Position numbers and translations under genes: made by a program | The notes under the pieces: generated by a model | What the model was told of the DNA's origin: nothing | What the model saw: only the letters and a program-made list of their open reading frames with translations | Database searches by the model: none | Source of the DNA: an uncultured Methanosarcinales archaeon | Lineage (GTDB): Archaea > Nanobdellota > Nanobdellia > Woesearchaeales > JACPBV01 | Length of the DNA stretch: 64,000 nucleotides | Assembly (NCBI GenBank): GCA_964609455.1 | Contig: CAZSRD010000005.1 | Coordinates: forward strand, 4,878 to 68,877 | Direction of reading: 5' to 3' | In this document: positions 28,941 to 55,903 of the stretch, piece after piece | Position numbering within the stretch: position 1 is the first letter of the stretch | How the letters are laid out: each line of letters opens with the position of its first letter

Positions 28941-28966
28941 AATCCCCTTTATTAGCCCAGCTTAGG
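28941..28966 (+). repeat. degenerate partial copy of the tRNA-Tyr 5' end (aatcccctttattagcccagcttag versus ctatccccgcttag)
   Basis: CCCAGCTTAG versus CCCCGCTTAG at the genuine tRNA start, 880 bp downstream. The pair flanks the LAGLIDADG ORF. Confidence 0.45.
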
Positions 28967-29018: not shown

Positions 29019-29816
29019 ATGAAAAACAAAAAAATTTCAAAAAAAGACCTTATTCAAGAAGTACATAATCTGGAACTTACATTACATAGGAGGCCAGTTA
29101 AAAGGGATAACGCAACATTATACAAAAATTCTAGAGAGTTTTTTGGTTCTTGGAATAAGATGTTATTTTCAGCAGGATACTCTGTTCAATTTTTACAAAA
29201 AATAGGTTCATATACATTTAATCATAATTTTGCATATTTTTTAGGATTATTAATCACTGATGGGCATATTGCTTATGATAAAAGACGAGAAAACTACAAA
29301 GTGGCCATCTATACTAGTTATCCAGACGAAAGAGATATGTTAGTAAAACTAATCAGGCATATATTTGAGTATAATGCACGTATTAGCAAGAAGAAGGCAG
29401 GGTATAATGTGAAATTTAATTTTGAAGTTAGGATAAATTCTAAAAAGCTTGCTGAGGATTTAATTGATGATTATTGTATTCCTTCAGGTAAAAAATCTTT
29501 AAACGTTCGTTTACCAAATTTCTTATTTAATACACAAATAAGGTGTAAGGAATCTTTTTTAAGGGGGGTTATTGATGGTGATGGTTCTATTACAAAGAGG
29601 GGAATAAAAATTGTATCTGGTTCTACACTTTTCCTTAAAGATTTGAAACATTTTTTATTCACTTTAAAAATTCACACTGGTAGTATTATAAAGGAGCACG
29701 ATAGAAATACTTATTCAATTAGGATTAATAAGAAAGAAGATTGGATTAAAATTAAACGAATTTACTCTTTTGGATATTTCTATAAGCGAAAGAGAGAAAG
29801 TATCAATAAGATTTAA
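29019..29816 (+). CDS. free-standing double-motif LAGLIDADG homing-endonuclease-like protein
   Basis: Two LAGLIDADG motifs: FAYFLGLLITDGHIAYD and FLRGVIDGDGSITK. Confidence 0.75.
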   Translation: MKNKKISKKDLIQEVHNLELTLHRRPVKRDNATLYKNSREFFGSWNKMLFSAGYSVQFLQKIGSYTFNHNFAYFLGLLITDGHIAYDKRRENYKVAIYTSYPDERDMLVKLIRHIFEYNARISKKKAGYNVKFNFEVRINSKKLAEDLIDDYCIPSGKKSLNVRLPNFLFNTQIRCKESFLRGVIDGDGSITKRGIKIVSGSTLFLKDLKHFLFTLKIHTGSIIKEHDRNTYSIRINKKEDWIKIKRIYSFGYFYKRKRESINKI

Positions 29817-29844: not shown

Positions 29845-29999
29845 CCCCGCTTAGTTTAGACTAACATTTTTTAGTGTTGGGAACAATGGCTAGAACGGTC
29901 GGCTGTAGATAAGATCACTTACTGACTTTGCATTTTGCATAGAATGAAAGTAAGTCAGCTGGTACCGACAAATCCCTGGTTCAAGTCCGGGAGCGGGGA
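29845..29999 (+). tRNA. tRNA-Tyr(GTA) with a canonical 55-nt anticodon intron and a probable second intron of about 27 nt in the D-arm
   Basis: Acceptor CCCCGCT/AGCGGGG. Anticodon arm GTCGG-CTGTAG[intron]A-CCGAC. T-arm CCTGG-TTCAAGT-CCGGG. The D region is 46 nt instead of 19. Mature length would be 73 nt. Confidence 0.7.
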
Positions 30000-30452: not shown

Positions 30453-30541
30453 GCCCTGGTGGTGTAGTGGCCTATCATGAAGCCCTGTCGATGCTATAGA
30501 AGCAGAACGGCTTCGACCCGAGTTCGAATCTCGGCCGGGGC
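30453..30541 (+). tRNA. tRNA-Asp(GTC) with an intron of about 17 nt in the anticodon loop
   Basis: GCCCTGGTGGTGTAGTGGCCTATCATG-AAGCC-CTGTC-G[ATGCTATAGAAGCAGAA]C-GGCTT. T-arm CCGAG-TTCGAAT-CTCGG. Acceptor 3' strand CCGGGGC. Closely matches archaeal tRNA-Asp. Confidence 0.8.
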
Positions 30542-30544
30542 GTA

Positions 30545-30657
30545 GGGCCCGTAGCTCAGCCTGGTTAGAGCGCCTCACTTTTAATGAGGTGGCCGCGCGT
30601 TCGAACAGCAGGTCAGCCAAAGGTTGATCACGACGCTCTGAAAATCGCGTCGGGCCC
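30545..30657 (+). tRNA. tRNA-Lys(TTT) with a non-canonical intron of about 39 nt in the T-loop
   Basis: GGGCCCG-TA-GCTC-AGCCTGGTTA-GAGC-G-CCTCA-CTTTTAA-TGAGG-TGGCC-GCGCG-TTCGAA[39 nt]T-CGCGT-CGGGCCC-A. Starts 3 nt after tRNA-Asp. Confidence 0.7.
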
Positions 30658-30674
30658 ATTTTAAAGTCATTAAA

Positions 30675-53457: not shown

Positions 53458-54102
53458 ATGAAAACATATACTGCTGACACTAAATCTTTACTTACACATC
53501 TTGAAAGCAATGTCACAAAAATACAGCAATATCTATTAGATAATGGTGTTGAAGATATTCTTGAACCTTTTAGATTAGTTGAGTTTACTGTAAAAGCACA
53601 CGTTTACCATAATGCCAGATGCGCATACATGCTTGGCATTGCTGATGGAATGGCAGCTTTAAGGGATGGTACAATTGATGCAATTGTAGATACGGAATTC
53701 GAACAATCTGCAGCTCGTTTTGGGGAACTTCCTGGTGCTTTATATAATGAAGTTGAAAAAACTGAATTGCTGCTAGAACCTATGGGTATAAAGGAATTTG
53801 CACCTGATACCAAGGATGTTTTAAAGGTTATGAAGGCAAACTTTGATATAGTGTATCAAGCTTGGGTAAATGCAGGACTTGGAAAAGATCGAAAGCAACG
53901 TAATTACCTATATGCCCAGTTTATATACCATATGCATCTATTCTATAATCTTGGTGCGTATGATGCTTTTGACGCAACTTTACATAGTGATATACTTGTT
54001 ACAGATCCACCAGGAAAGAAAGATCGTTACGAGCGTCTCAAGAAACAGCTTGAACAAGAGCTTAAAAAACATGCGGAGAAAGCTACTGCAGCTGGAGAAT
54101 AA
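53458..54102 (+). CDS. hypothetical protein, compositionally GC-richer
   Basis: No motif recognised. Codon usage differs from the neighbours. Confidence 0.35.
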   Translation: MKTYTADTKSLLTHLESNVTKIQQYLLDNGVEDILEPFRLVEFTVKAHVYHNARCAYMLGIADGMAALRDGTIDAIVDTEFEQSAARFGELPGALYNEVEKTELLLEPMGIKEFAPDTKDVLKVMKANFDIVYQAWVNAGLGKDRKQRNYLYAQFIYHMHLFYNLGAYDAFDATLHSDILVTDPPGKKDRYERLKKQLEQELKKHAEKATAAGE

Positions 54103-54175
54103 ATCACAATATCTTCTCTTCTTCTTTATCTTTAGAGTTCTCCATAATTTTTTATGATTAAAAAGAATAAAAAAT

Positions 54176-54294
54176 GCGAGGAGGAGGATTCGAACCCCCG
54201 TAAGCACTAAGCTAATAGGTGTCTTACAAAAGTGACCTAAGCTTGGACATTTCTTGAGAAAATCTATCCCGTTTGGCCACTCCGGCATCCTCGC
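54176..54294 (-). tRNA. intron-containing class II-type tRNA (long variable arm, discriminator A; Leu-like), intron about 36 nt, anticodon not resolved by eye
   Basis: Minus strand GCGAGGA-TG-CCG-GAGTGGCCAAA-CGG-G-ATAGA...CCTAT-(AGC-TTAGT-GCT)TAC-GGGGG-TTCGAAT-CCTCC-TCCTCGC. Acceptor and T-arm pair perfectly. 119 nt in total. Confidence 0.65.
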
Positions 54295-54946
54295 ATTTGA
54301 AACGCTTATTGATTCTCTCAAGCTTTTCTGTGTTTTGTAATGGTAAAAGCTTTAAAAATTTATCTATTTCTCCTTTGTAAATCCTAATCCCATAAAACTC
54401 TTTATTGTATCTCTTGTTAGTCCATCTTTCTTTTAGATGTTTAATACCAAATTCGTTAAGGAGTTCTATTGTTCCTTTATGAAGAATTTGGCTTGCAGTT
54501 GTAAACCCTAAAGAATTGCCCCTGAATCCACCATCTGTATCAAAATATCCTGCTAGAAAGCAACTTTTAATTTCTTTTGAAGAGTTTTTTATTTTATTTG
54601 GAACAAAAACTATGGAACTTTTAGCTCCTTTTGGAATTTCCATTTCTTCGGACAAAAACTTAAATAACCTTTTATTCCTAACTTGAAAATATAATCTTTC
54701 CATCCTATTTCCATAAATTTTTGGAGATTGGGGTTGACTTTTTGTATAAATTAAGGATTTAATTACTTTACTTAAGTAGACAAGGTATTCTTTGTCTGAT
54801 ATATCTATTCTTATTTGATAATCAGTAGAATGATCAGTTTTAGATTTTGATGAGTTTACTATATGCCCATCACCAATTATAACTCCTACAAGATAAGCGG
54901 TTTTGGGAGTAAGCTTAATCTTTGATTCAATTTTTTTATTATTCAT
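54224..54946 (-). CDS. free-standing double-motif LAGLIDADG homing-endonuclease-like protein; its 3' end runs into the tRNA
   Basis: YLVGVIIGDGHIVNS and FLAGYFDTDGGFRG. Confidence 0.7.
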   Translation of the reverse strand: MNNKKIESKIKLTPKTAYLVGVIIGDGHIVNSSKSKTDHSTDYQIRIDISDKEYLVYLSKVIKSLIYTKSQPQSPKIYGNRMERLYFQVRNKRLFKFLSEEMEIPKGAKSSIVFVPNKIKNSSKEIKSCFLAGYFDTDGGFRGNSLGFTTASQILHKGTIELLNEFGIKHLKERWTNKRYNKEFYGIRIYKGEIDKFLKLLPLQNTEKLERINKRFKCEDAGVAKRDRFSQEMSKLRSLL

Positions 54947-55087
54947 TTAAATCACTAAATTTTACTTAGTTGAGACTATTTAAATGATTTTTAGTTTTTT
55001 TAGCAAAAATCATAATTTAATAGTCGAAACATTATTTAAAGTGATTTAAATATAAAAGAATTGGAGTTTAAATATCTTGCTTAATTT

Positions 55088-55107
55088 GACCACTCCGGCA
55101 TCTCCGC
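55088..55107 (-). repeat. degenerate partial copy of the 54176-54294 tRNA 5' end (GCGGAGATGCCGGAGTGGTC versus GCGAGGATGCCGGAGTGGCC)
   Basis: 17 of 20 positions identical. Located on the far side of the LAGLIDADG ORF from the intact tRNA. Confidence 0.5.
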
Positions 55108-55204
55108 ACAATAGGCTAAGAAAATTGGCCATTATAAAAATCTTTCTACTTCTATGTTGGAAATTAATAAAATTTAAATATGACCTGTTGAGCAAAGAAT
55201 TAAG

Positions 55205-55903
55205 ATGAAAAAGCTGATTTATCTGTTATTGGTGTTAGGCATTGCCCTAATAGTCGGTTGTAGTTTAAAAAAACCGTGTGAATCTATAGCTGATCCTGCT
55301 ACTAAGGATGATTGCCTTTTTGAAAGAGCACTTGAGTCTGGTTCTTTAAATGATTGCAATAGCATCCAATCTGATTCGGTTAAAAATCCATGTATTGCCG
55401 AGATCGGAATAATGAAAGAAGACCAATCTATATGTGATTCAATAGATGGGATGTCAAGGGATTATTGCATTACAAAGATTGCTATGTCCGCAAAAGATTT
55501 CTCCAGGTGCAATCAGGTAAGTACAACCTACTGGTCAGACATATGTGTTAAGGAATTTGCAGTATCTGATAACAATTTTACAAGATGCGCTAAAATCTCT
55601 AATCTTTTTGAGAAGGATGAATGTTATAATGCTATAGCGCAGAATATCGCTAAAGTTGAGCCGTGCTTTTATATCTATAATGAGACAAATCATGACTTAT
55701 GCGTAAGGAGAATAGCAGTAGCTACCTTGAATGAGAGTTTATGCGAGGAAACGAAAACTGTCGTAATAGGGGATATATGCTACCAGAAGATAGCCCAGTT
55801 GAAGAAAAATGAATCAATTTGTGATGGTGCTAGTTATTGGGATATAAAGAATGCTTGTAAGGCAGCAGTAAGATCTATCCTTAATAAAACTGAGCAGGAT
55901 TAA
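55205..55903 (+). CDS. secreted Cys-rich repeat protein with a lipobox-like signal (LIVGC)
   Basis: MKKLIYLLLVLGIALIVGCS, then roughly 35-aa repeats of the form C...D.C......A. Confidence 0.4.
   Translation: MKKLIYLLLVLGIALIVGCSLKKPCESIADPATKDDCLFERALESGSLNDCNSIQSDSVKNPCIAEIGIMKEDQSICDSIDGMSRDYCITKIAMSAKDFSRCNQVSTTYWSDICVKEFAVSDNNFTRCAKISNLFEKDECYNAIAQNIAKVEPCFYIYNETNHDLCVRRIAVATLNESLCEETKTVVIGDICYQKIAQLKKNESICDGASYWDIKNACKAAVRSILNKTEQD

Follow-up and report, generated by a model that had tools for sequence, protein, structure and literature searches.

We analyzed a locus at which the gene of a LAGLIDADG-family protein abuts, and runs into, an intron-containing tRNA-Leu(UAG) gene. The locus lies in a stretch of 64,000 nucleotides (nt) of AT-rich archaeal DNA (35.9% G + C; contig CAZSRD010000005.1 of assembly GCA_964609455.1), hereafter “the window”, which also encodes L37e, S8e, an Sm-like protein (LSM), RpoH, and RpoB, and whose nearest public sequences are metagenome-assembled Woesearchaeota and Nanoarchaeia. 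Read 5′ to 3′ on the minus strand, the locus comprises a TATA-like box, a 23-nt copy of the tRNA 5′ end, a second TATA-like box, a leader element, a Shine–Dalgarno-like motif, the LAGLIDADG open reading frame (ORF), and the tRNA gene, as follows:

55131..55140, minus strand: TATA-like box TTTTTATAAT, read from the sequence, 24–33 nt 5′ of the orphan tRNA fragment
55085..55107, minus strand: orphan copy of tRNA-Leu nt 1–23, GCGGAGATGCCGGAGTGGTCAAA, identified by sequence match
55066..55075, minus strand: TATA-like box ATATTTAAAC, read from the sequence
55006..55050, minus strand: conserved non-coding leader element of 45 nt, TTTAAATCACTTTAAATAATGTTTCGACTATTAAATTATGATTTT, with the core AACTAYTAAATTATRATTTT
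54951..54955, minus strand: Shine–Dalgarno-like GTGAT, read from the sequence, 5 nt before the ATG
54224..54946, minus strand: LAGLIDADG ORF of 240 amino acids, from Pfam, homolog alignment, AlphaFold, and Foldseek
54175..54294, minus strand: tRNA-Leu(UAG) gene, from RF00005 and in silico splicing, overlapping the ORF 3′ end by ~70 nt

The same arrangement was assembled independently, and with identical sequence, in four ENA samples and is therefore no assembly artifact; the coordinates proposed for it in an initial annotation of this DNA all hold exactly or to within 1–3 nt. The box at 55131..55140 would have served the original (resident) tRNA-Leu gene as promoter, and the box at 55066..55075 is a candidate promoter of the endonuclease gene; a ATATTTAAA(C/T) box also lies 5′ of the endonuclease ORF at three of the homologous loci described below (L005, L012, and L015). 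The leader element is conserved at 89% identity over 45 nt upstream of the endonuclease ORFs of L012 and L140, and can be discerned by eye in L005, L015, L011, L021, L043, L172, and L209. No further copy was found elsewhere in the window or in 240 loci, and for this lack of repeats we rejected a reading of the leader element (taken as 70 nt) as a miniature inverted-repeat transposable element. At most homologous loci, a GGAGGT/GGTGAT-like motif stands 5–8 nt ahead of the ATG. The endonuclease gene is low in G + C (30.4% over 54224–54946), as is the ORF of a second LAGLIDADG–tRNA pair in the window, locus 1 (28.1% over 29019–29816), compared to 36–37% for neighboring genes. The gene at 53458–54102 had been described as GC-richer; at 36.9%, it is close to the window mean and looks richer only beside the endonuclease gene.

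A class II-like, intron-containing tRNA had been proposed at 54294–54176. The tRNA is real and of class II, although its end had been placed one position short, missing the discriminator A at 54175: a sensitive Rfam scan matched RF00005 at 54294–54175 on the minus strand with 36.8 bits (gathering threshold 29). Neither ARAGORN nor Rfam with default filters detected the gene, and the intron mode of ARAGORN miscalled the unspliced sequence as tRNA-Val. Comparison with alleles that lack one or both introns (L005 and L008), together with in silico splicing, set the exon limits and fixed two introns and the anticodon UAG:

54264..54294, minus strand: exon 1, gene nt 1–31; acceptor 5′ strand, D-arm, and first four anticodon-stem nt
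54243..54263, minus strand: intron 1, 21 nt, ATTTTCTCAAGAAATGTCCAA; non-canonical Sprinzl position 30/31
54236..54242, minus strand: exon 2, GCTTAGG; last 5′ anticodon-stem nt, C32, U33, anticodon UAG, and G37
54221..54235, minus strand: intron 2, 15 nt, TCACTTTTGTAAGAC; canonical position 37/38, holding the ORF stop codon TAA (54226–54224)
54175..54220, minus strand: exon 3; A38, anticodon-stem 3′ strand, long variable arm, T-arm, acceptor 3′ strand, and discriminator A

Removing both introns yields an 84-nt RNA that ARAGORN calls tRNA-Leu(tag), with a class II cloverleaf, a variable arm (AGC/GCU stem), and a 3′ A. By its covariance score, long variable arm, discriminator A73, and leucine anticodon, the window tRNA is a class II tRNA-Leu(UAG) with two predicted bulge–helix–bulge (BHB) introns. 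Earlier readings of the anticodon, i.e., CAA in a hairpin UCAA or a Glu UUC, were overturned by the comparison with L005 and L008. In both introns, exon nt −6 to −3 of the 5′ splice site pair with intron nt −6 to −3 of the 3′ site, and each splice site comes after two unpaired nt. Read directly, the helix is GGAU/GUCC with bulges AG↓A and AA↓G in intron 1, and CUUA/UAAG with bulges GG↓U and AC↓A in intron 2 (arrows mark splice sites). The intron 1 helix is fully paired (4/4) in 43/43 parsed loci, with compensatory types that include GGAC/GUCC, GGCC/GGCC, GGCA/UGCC, GGGU/GCCC, and GACC/GGUC. Both introns thus combine a helix of 4 base pairs (bp) with opposite-strand bulges, in a relaxed form with a weak outer helix, and their removal as BHB introns is predicted to give a functional RNA. 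Introns of this type are excised by the cellular splicing endonuclease, and no maturase is required. Across loci, the GCTTAGG exon is always kept, while intron 2 is missing in L005 and L008 and has variable-length versions in many others. Intron 1 is missing from 39 tRNA-Leu(UAG) alleles of the metagenome sample described below. A group I or II intron around the ORF was rejected: Rfam gave no group I or II match at the locus, and the corresponding insert at L013 consists of the ORF alone.

The LAGLIDADG ORF is, as initially annotated, 240 amino acids long and scores above cut-off with both Pfam profiles (LAGLIDADG_3, 56.4 bits, cut-off 22.5; LAGLIDADG_2, 31.7 bits, cut-off 25). Its motifs VIIGDGH (D26) and YFDTDGG (D138) each end in a catalytic acidic residue, and G25, D26, G27, D136, D138, G139, and G140, i.e., the GDG of residues 25–27 and most of the DTDGG of residues 136–140 (family form D(T/A)DGG), are invariant in 24 aligned homologs; both motifs are intact at 37/48 homologous loci. 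A search of the PDB with the single sequence gave no match, while a profile search retrieved archaeal intein endonucleases and I-DmoI (E = 7e-7). The AlphaFold model (predicted local distance difference test [pLDDT] 88.6; predicted template modeling [TM] score 0.84) has the tandem αββαββα fold, and Foldseek matched it to I-DmoI (TM 0.79, root-mean-square deviation ~3.1 Å), PI-PfuI, and the Tli VMA intein endonuclease, with E-values down to 3.5e-11; the bI3 maturase was also among the structural matches. Profiles and model alike identify the predicted product as an I-DmoI-like, monomeric, two-motif LAGLIDADG endonuclease. Lying outside both introns, 5′ of tRNA nt 1, and with no in-frame fusion within a host protein, the ORF is neither intron- nor intein-encoded.

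The ORF had also been said to terminate inside the tRNA, and this proved correct: its last ~70 nt are nt 1–71 of the tRNA gene, and its stop codon lies in intron 2. The folded core spans residues 5–218 (to ~54293), and residues 219–240 are translated tRNA sequence with pLDDT < 50. Among homologs, each of the three frames of the tRNA is used for the tail, and other ORFs end immediately before the tRNA. We therefore regard the overrun as a by-product of the tight junction; a functional C-terminal peptide was rejected given this three-frame reading and the disorder of the tail in the model.

Upstream of the ORF, the 17/20-nt repeat of the tRNA 5′ end first noted at 55107–55088 is real and extends further, matching tRNA nt 1–23 at 20/23 positions over 55107–55085. 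The runner-up among the 128,000 positions of the two window strands reaches 16/23, which, together with the recurrence of the layout across homologous loci, bears out the initial view that the arrangement is no coincidence. Nor is the repeat the start of another complete tRNA: a sensitive Rfam scan of 53900–55300 shows one tRNA only. The copy runs precisely to the D-loop CAAA and includes nothing of the D-stem 3′ strand. Its three mismatches include a swap in the acceptor stem, G4A5 in the fragment versus A4G5 in the downstream tRNA. At 23/23 positions, the fragment equals the 5′ end of intact tRNA-Leu genes that have no endonuclease (L104, L112, and L138, all UAG, and L193, CAA). Since it matches such alleles perfectly and its own neighbor at only 20/23 positions, the fragment is best read not as a mutated copy of the adjacent tRNA but as the stump of a different, resident-type allele, standing behind that allele’s own presumed promoter.

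A recognizable fragment occurs at ten of 48 homologous loci (the window, L013, L040, L172, L015, L021, L032, L035, L038, and L209), against a background maximum of 15/23 on the opposite strand, and all ten have a TATA-like box 25–35 nt ahead. At five of these loci, the intact copy ends or is broken at nt 23/24, and the sequence joined there differs every time: the promoter region in the window; codon 4 of the ORF in L013, where the GTG start falls within the fragment; sequence 44 nt ahead of the ORF in L040; a 14-nt insertion, followed by an intron-less copy on to ~nt 34, in L172; and a ~190-nt insertion in L015. The remaining fragments have a perfect 5′ part of 12–16 nt and a scrambled 3′ part. 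Breakpoints thus cluster 8 nt upstream of the 30/31 intron site. In L021 (128–260) and L172 (4–60), the fragments are broken by short inserts whose ends repeat flanking tRNA sequence, two in L021 (~38 and ~46 nt) and the one in L172 at nt 23/24; these could be scars left by repair at the cut site, or else introns that the former resident allele had in its D-loop. The upstream copy may once have reached the anticodon loop (~nt 39), with the motif CCACTGGACA as a possible decayed piece of tRNA, but the resemblance is weak (best ungapped match 7/10 to tRNA nt 21–30, or 6–7/10 to nt 12–21).

Next, we evaluated how this arrangement is distributed. Relatives of the endonuclease numbered 64 in a collection of 5.8 billion proteins and 103 in a one-genome-per-species GTDB set; there were no close relatives in 2.9 million viral contigs (IMG/VR). 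We studied 48 loci, 43 from genomes and five from an independent metagenome scan, mainly from Woesearchaeota and Nanoarchaeia and encoding proteins of 37–69% identity. In 47/48, the ORF directly precedes a tRNA-Leu(UAG) gene, adjoining its 5′ end, and the 48th, from a Micrarchaeota, lies beside tRNA-Leu(UAG) in the opposite orientation. There (L051, 2370–3310), a 37%-identical endonuclease gene stands between a complete opposite-strand tRNA-Leu(UAG) and a reverse-complemented copy of a tRNA 3′ end (T-arm and acceptor, ~2370–2410), a layout that mirrors the window with a 3′ rather than 5′ duplication.

The 30/31 intron is present in 47/48 endonuclease-linked tRNAs. These introns are 12–36 nt long, contain no ORF, and share sequence, e.g., AATTCTAATC...GTCCAA. 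In the one exception, L044, the D-stem 3′ strand is a variant, CGAGC, right at the proposed cut site (see below). For an unselected sample, we used the shared D-arm pattern to collect 120 metagenomic tRNA-Leu loci, and judged occupancy where ≥800 nt of upstream sequence was available:

tRNA-Leu(UAG) with the 30/31 intron: endonuclease at 5, none at 2
tRNA-Leu(UAG) without the 30/31 intron: endonuclease at 0, none at 32
tRNA-Leu(CAA), ten with a different 30/31 intron: endonuclease at 0, none at 46

Overall, 5/39 UAG alleles (~13%) were occupied, and intron and endonuclease were strongly associated among them (Fisher p = 3.6e-5), while no endonuclease gene was found upstream of any of the 46 tRNA-Leu(CAA) genes sharing the same D-arm. 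An endonuclease gene thus adjoins an intron-containing target, and intron and endonuclease co-occur, as in collaborative homing. An intron at 30/31 is common in tRNA-Leu(CAA) genes of these archaea (L092, L095, L099, L107, L122, L123, L129, L131, L150, L161, L163, L179, L180, L190, L200, L204, and L210); their introns belong to another sequence family (e.g., CGTTTGGTAATTAGGTACTAAACATCCAA), are usually accompanied by a long 37/38 intron, and have no endonuclease nearby. A distant LAGLIDADG ORF (L182, 866–1318; 32% identity to P0064) lies ~670 nt 3′ of a tRNA-Leu(CAA) and was left out of the endonuclease-linked count.

The presence/absence polymorphism that the initial annotation had proposed to look for does exist. 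The order S8e–LSM–L37e–tRNA-Leu(UAG) is common to occupied and empty sites in comparably related organisms: at the empty L105, L37e is followed by 77 nt and the tRNA, and at the occupied L013 by 77 nt, fragment nt 1–23, a 657-nt insert that is the ORF only, and the tRNA. In addition, ~8–10 of the 48 ORFs (~20%) carry stop codons or frameshifts beside an intact tRNA. As judged from these sequences, presence or absence at one fixed site combined with decay is the hallmark of a selfish homing endonuclease gene. Endonuclease identity tracks the identity of LSM plus L37e only weakly (Spearman 0.34), with no outlier pair and no clear recent transfer between distant hosts.

A motif, CCACTGG(A/T)CA, recurs 12–17 nt 5′ of the TATA box of the endonuclease gene at ~20 of the 48 loci despite 37–65% protein divergence (L005, L008, L011, L012, L015, L019, L020, L028–L030, L033, L035–L037, L041, L044–L046, and L050), in two copies in L008, L045, L046, and L050. 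In the window, the fragment’s own GGAGTGGTCAAA takes this position. The motif may be an operator or a half-site.

Taken together, we consider it probable, with appreciable room for doubt, that the locus is a free-standing, i.e., not intron-encoded, LAGLIDADG homing cassette specialized on the tRNA-Leu(UAG) gene in DPANN archaea, which brings along an intron-protected replacement tRNA and leaves a 5′ stump of the resident gene. Specifically, the enzyme would cut intron-less tRNA-Leu(UAG) near the boundary of D-loop and D-stem, at about gene nt 23/24, within a recognition site of ~22 bp that would extend into the anticodon stem and loop, roughly nt 12–35. We infer that the nt 23/24 breakpoint is the enzyme’s cut and that the fragment is the left end of the broken resident gene. 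A reach into the anticodon region would explain both why tRNA-Leu(CAA), identical through nt 31, is never occupied and why an intron 8 nt away is linked to occupancy. The break would be repaired from an occupied allele, the right end copying the donor tRNA with its intron and then the endonuclease gene, while the left end, inside the resident tRNA, would remain as an orphan 5′ fragment that later transfers could use as a portable homology arm on the left. The incoming tRNA would supplant the resident, in the window including its acceptor stem. By splitting the recognition site, the 30/31 intron would keep the cassette’s own tRNA uncut, so that the intron would protect while the endonuclease would move both (“collaborative homing”); by analogy with known systems, the intron of the replacement tRNA probably blocks self-cleavage. 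Because the ORF abuts the tRNA, the latter is probably matured from the endonuclease transcript: mRNA and tRNA would form one transcript from which RNase P and the splicing endonuclease free the tRNA, and this sharing would make the cassette promoter hard to lose.

Several observations weigh against this scenario. The cut site and target are deduced solely from breakpoints and associations. The duplication restores the whole nt 23/24 region in the downstream tRNA, and immunity must therefore rest on the intron 8 bp off; that intron affects only the outer 3–4 bp of a 22-bp site centered on 23/24, which may be too peripheral. L044 is endonuclease-linked yet has no intron, and, conversely, two intron-bearing UAG alleles (L135 and L158) have no endonuclease, nor were endonuclease remnants found upstream of either. 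Since CAA genes carry endonuclease-free introns at 30/31, the intron position is not unique to the UAG system. Only ten of the 48 loci keep a recognizable fragment, and some of these are interrupted or rearranged (L015, L021, and L172). The weak tracking of host markers leaves room for inheritance that may be largely vertical, while the CCACTGG(A/T)CA motif suggests a regulation that homing does not explain. Finally, rather than being co-transcribed, the tRNA may have a promoter inside the 3′ end of the ORF.

The main rival explanation is a domesticated LAGLIDADG protein serving tRNA-Leu(UAG), which would either assist, like a maturase, with the 30/31 intron or regulate by binding CCACTGGACA and the tRNA gene. 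Some LAGLIDADG proteins are known maturases, and the bI3 maturase is among the structural matches of our model; a resident function would also fit the constant association with the same tRNA and, in 47/48 cases, the same intron, the 77% of ORFs that are intact across 37–69% divergence, the conserved motif ahead of the TATA box at ~20 loci, and the weak correlation of identity with host markers. However, a protein that serves this tRNA is hard to reconcile with its presence at only ~13% of tRNA-Leu(UAG) genes and its absence from close relatives whose neighboring genes are the same, or with the decay of ~20% of copies beside an intact tRNA. Both catalytic Asp motifs are invariant, which neither a maturase nor a repressor needs, BHB introns require no maturase, and L135 and L158 bear the intron in the absence of the protein. 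We therefore judge domestication unlikely, though not negligible.

Much less credible is a giant-intron or split tRNA, in which the fragment would be the true 5′ exon, and the endonuclease gene with the second nt 1–23 a ~0.8-kb BHB intron or a trans-spliced leader. The source archaeon does have many non-canonical tRNA introns, LAGLIDADG genes such as I-DmoI sit in BHB introns of archaeal rRNA, the fragment is preceded by a TATA box, and in L013 the ORF start codon lies inside it. But the downstream tRNA is complete, with 7/7 pairs in the acceptor stem, where the fragment would give 5/7 plus one G–U, leaving one mismatch. Read directly, the 3′ flank of the fragment has no BHB-forming complementarity to the sequence before nt 24, and the window contains no 3′ half matching the fragment. 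Moreover, 38/48 loci have no recognizable fragment, and others have decayed ones. With a complete downstream gene, no complementary flank, and no partner half in the window, this is not a split or permuted tRNA.

A further alternative is an integrase-type element or virus at a tRNA attachment site, with the LAGLIDADG gene as cargo and the 23-nt repeat as attachment-site (att) duplication. tRNA genes are classic integration sites, which favors such an element. So does a precedent, cited in PMC4033280, of a 1.8-kb recombinase-bearing insertion between a tRNA fragment and a tRNA gene in Caldiarchaeum. Yet the ~0.8-kb insert of the window holds the endonuclease gene only, with no integrase or recombinase, the 657-nt insert of L013 is the ORF alone, the duplicated part is the 5′ end, and the viral contigs yielded no close relatives, so that an integrated element is even less plausible than a giant intron. 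Least of all do we credit chance or an assembly artifact that would render repeat and adjacency meaningless: although all sequences are metagenome assemblies, four independent ones agree, the repeat stands at 20/23 against a background maximum of 16/23, and endonuclease and tRNA are adjacent at 48/48 loci. We consider these last three explanations effectively excluded.

For the proposed mobile homing cassette at the tRNA-Leu(UAG) gene, several known systems offer points of comparison. I-DmoI, I-Tsp061I, PI-PfuI, and Tli VMA are, like the predicted window enzyme, monomers with a two-domain LAGLIDADG fold in which each motif supplies one catalytic acidic residue, and I-DmoI-type enzymes have in common with the window an archaeal host and a stable-RNA gene as target that also bears BHB introns. 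They are, however, encoded inside the mobilized intron or intein, whereas the window gene is free-standing in a tRNA 5′ leader, and sequence identity between I-DmoI and the window enzyme is ~20%. Closest in logic is the cyanophage pair of F-CphI and the psbA group I intron, the case of collaborative homing reported by Zeng, Bonocora and Shub in 2009 (as described in PMC6083498): an intron-containing gene has a free-standing endonuclease gene as its neighbor, intron-less alleles are without the endonuclease, and it has been proposed that the intron prevents self-cleavage and that both are mobilized by the endonuclease. That system differs in belonging to a phage, a protein gene, a self-splicing group I intron, and an Endo VII or HNH fold, as opposed to an archaeal chromosome, a tRNA gene, a BHB intron, a LAGLIDADG enzyme, and a 5′ stump in the window, where cleavage and immunity are predicted. 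In phage T4, trans-homing of I-TevIII by mobE has been described (PMC2790892), as has SegB, a free-standing GIY-YIG homing endonuclease in a tRNA gene cluster (PMC2988022). SegB likewise stands free among tRNA genes, targets the tRNA region of genomes that do not have it, and entails co-conversion of flanking tRNAs; unlike the window, it involves another enzyme family, a phage, a position between tRNA genes, and an intergenic target, with neither fragment duplication nor intron partner.

The Caldiarchaeum insertion resembles the window in its succession of fragment, insertion, and intact tRNA gene. Its insert bears a recombinase gene, whereas that of the window encodes a homing endonuclease and has the 5′ end duplicated, double-strand-break repair being a likelier mechanism than site-specific recombination. 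Randau and Soll hypothesized that disrupted tRNA genes resist invaders (as cited in PMC4033280), and the idea that introns protect tRNA genes gains direct statistical support from the link between endonuclease and intron found here. Endonuclease-bearing group I introns are present in tRNA genes, i.e., tRNA-Leu in cyanobacteria and tRNA-Asn/Asp in Patescibacteria (PMC13011429). These too associate a homing endonuclease with a tRNA gene, in a reduced genome, but the window has no ribozyme and its ORF lies outside the tRNA. Reported archaeal group I introns are all in rRNA genes (PMC6125680). Full-text literature searches brought up no account of LAGLIDADG genes located in the leaders of archaeal tRNA genes; the parts, i.e., LAGLIDADG homing, BHB introns, collaborative homing, and tRNA fragments at insertions, are known, while their combination and setting appear new.

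The layout is not confined to leucine tRNAs. At locus 1, the ORF at 29019–29816 (plus strand) encodes a LAGLIDADG protein with an extra N-terminal HNH_repeat domain, 27% identical to the product of 54224–54946, and is followed by a tRNA-Tyr(GUA) gene (29845–29999, plus strand) with D-loop and 37/38 introns read by eye, which neither ARAGORN nor Rfam detected. The upstream repeat is much weaker than that of tRNA-Leu, namely 9/10 of the first 10 nt of tRNA-Tyr at 28956–28965. ORFs of this type lie directly 5′ of tRNA-Tyr(GUA) in all four distinct contexts examined (L211, L213–215, and L216 among relatives), orphan tRNA-Tyr 5′ copies of 9–11 nt occur at 3/5 loci (the window; L211, 11 nt, perfect; L215, 10 nt, perfect), and three of the four distinct tRNA-Tyr genes have a D-loop intron. 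The view that the leucine locus is an independent second case of the locus-1 arrangement is thereby upheld, the placement of the ORF against the tRNA recurring at locus 1, at 48/48 Leu loci, and in the four Tyr contexts. L213/L214 and L215 have an identical Tyr-type endonuclease and an identical tRNA-Tyr, RpoH, and RpoB region downstream, but their upstream flanks are of two kinds that are unrelated to each other: in one, a BcrAD_BadFG gene overlaps the start of the ORF, and the other carries a seryl-tRNA synthetase gene plus an orphan tRNA fragment. This marks the left edge of the cassette as a breakpoint of rearrangement. Two further ORFs, in L062 (2450–3155, Nanoarchaeia) and L080 (2300–2885, Pacearchaeota), encode LAGLIDADG proteins of ~27–31% identity and abut and run into an intron-less tRNA-Thr(GGU). 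Directly ahead of the ATG, L062 has a TATA box and GCGCTATAGTGGT, which may be a decayed tRNA-Thr 5′ fragment.

How archaeal tRNA introns came to lie at dozens of non-canonical positions, and why archaeal tRNA genes are so frequently disrupted, is an open question. Intron “transposition” and protection against invaders have been proposed; to our knowledge, no agent has been identified. The window locus and its 47 relatives represent a candidate agent: a gene in a tRNA leader that is specific to one isoacceptor, statistically tied to one ectopic intron, and leaves orphan fragments behind. We raise tentatively, as a conjecture we would not yet bet on, that free-standing tRNA-targeting LAGLIDADG genes form a general class of mobile genes in DPANN and possibly other archaea, with at least three subfamilies that each specialize on a single tRNA (Leu-UAG, Tyr-GUA, and Thr-GGU), and that ectopic BHB introns arise or spread as their immunity partners. 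If this were true, tRNA genes and homing endonucleases would be engaged in an arms race, whose footprint we would see in the proliferation or “transposition” of ectopic tRNA introns and perhaps also in orphan fragments and split tRNAs. From a practical standpoint, standard tRNA finders miss such genes and gene callers stretch the endonuclease ORF into the tRNA. Given a predictable ~22-bp target in a conserved tRNA gene, the family may also serve as a source of rare cutters.

The genes flanking the leucine locus, at 53458–54102 (plus strand, 214 amino acids) and 55205–55903 (plus strand, 232 amino acids), have no Pfam match. The 232-amino-acid protein is Cys-rich with an N-terminal lipobox-like LVGCS, and its homologs are encoded between L37e and the cassette in L024, L028, L029, L036, and L037. 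Elsewhere in the window, a tRNA-Lys(UUU) gene (30545–30658, plus strand) appears to hold an insertion of ~39 nt in its T-loop (CAGCAGG...CTGAAAA). Both ARAGORN (30546–30619) and Rfam (30545–30603) cut the gene short; the actual 3′ strand of its acceptor stem, CGGGCCC followed by A, is at 30651–30658. The adjacent tRNA-Asp gene (30453–30542) has a canonical intron of 20 nt.

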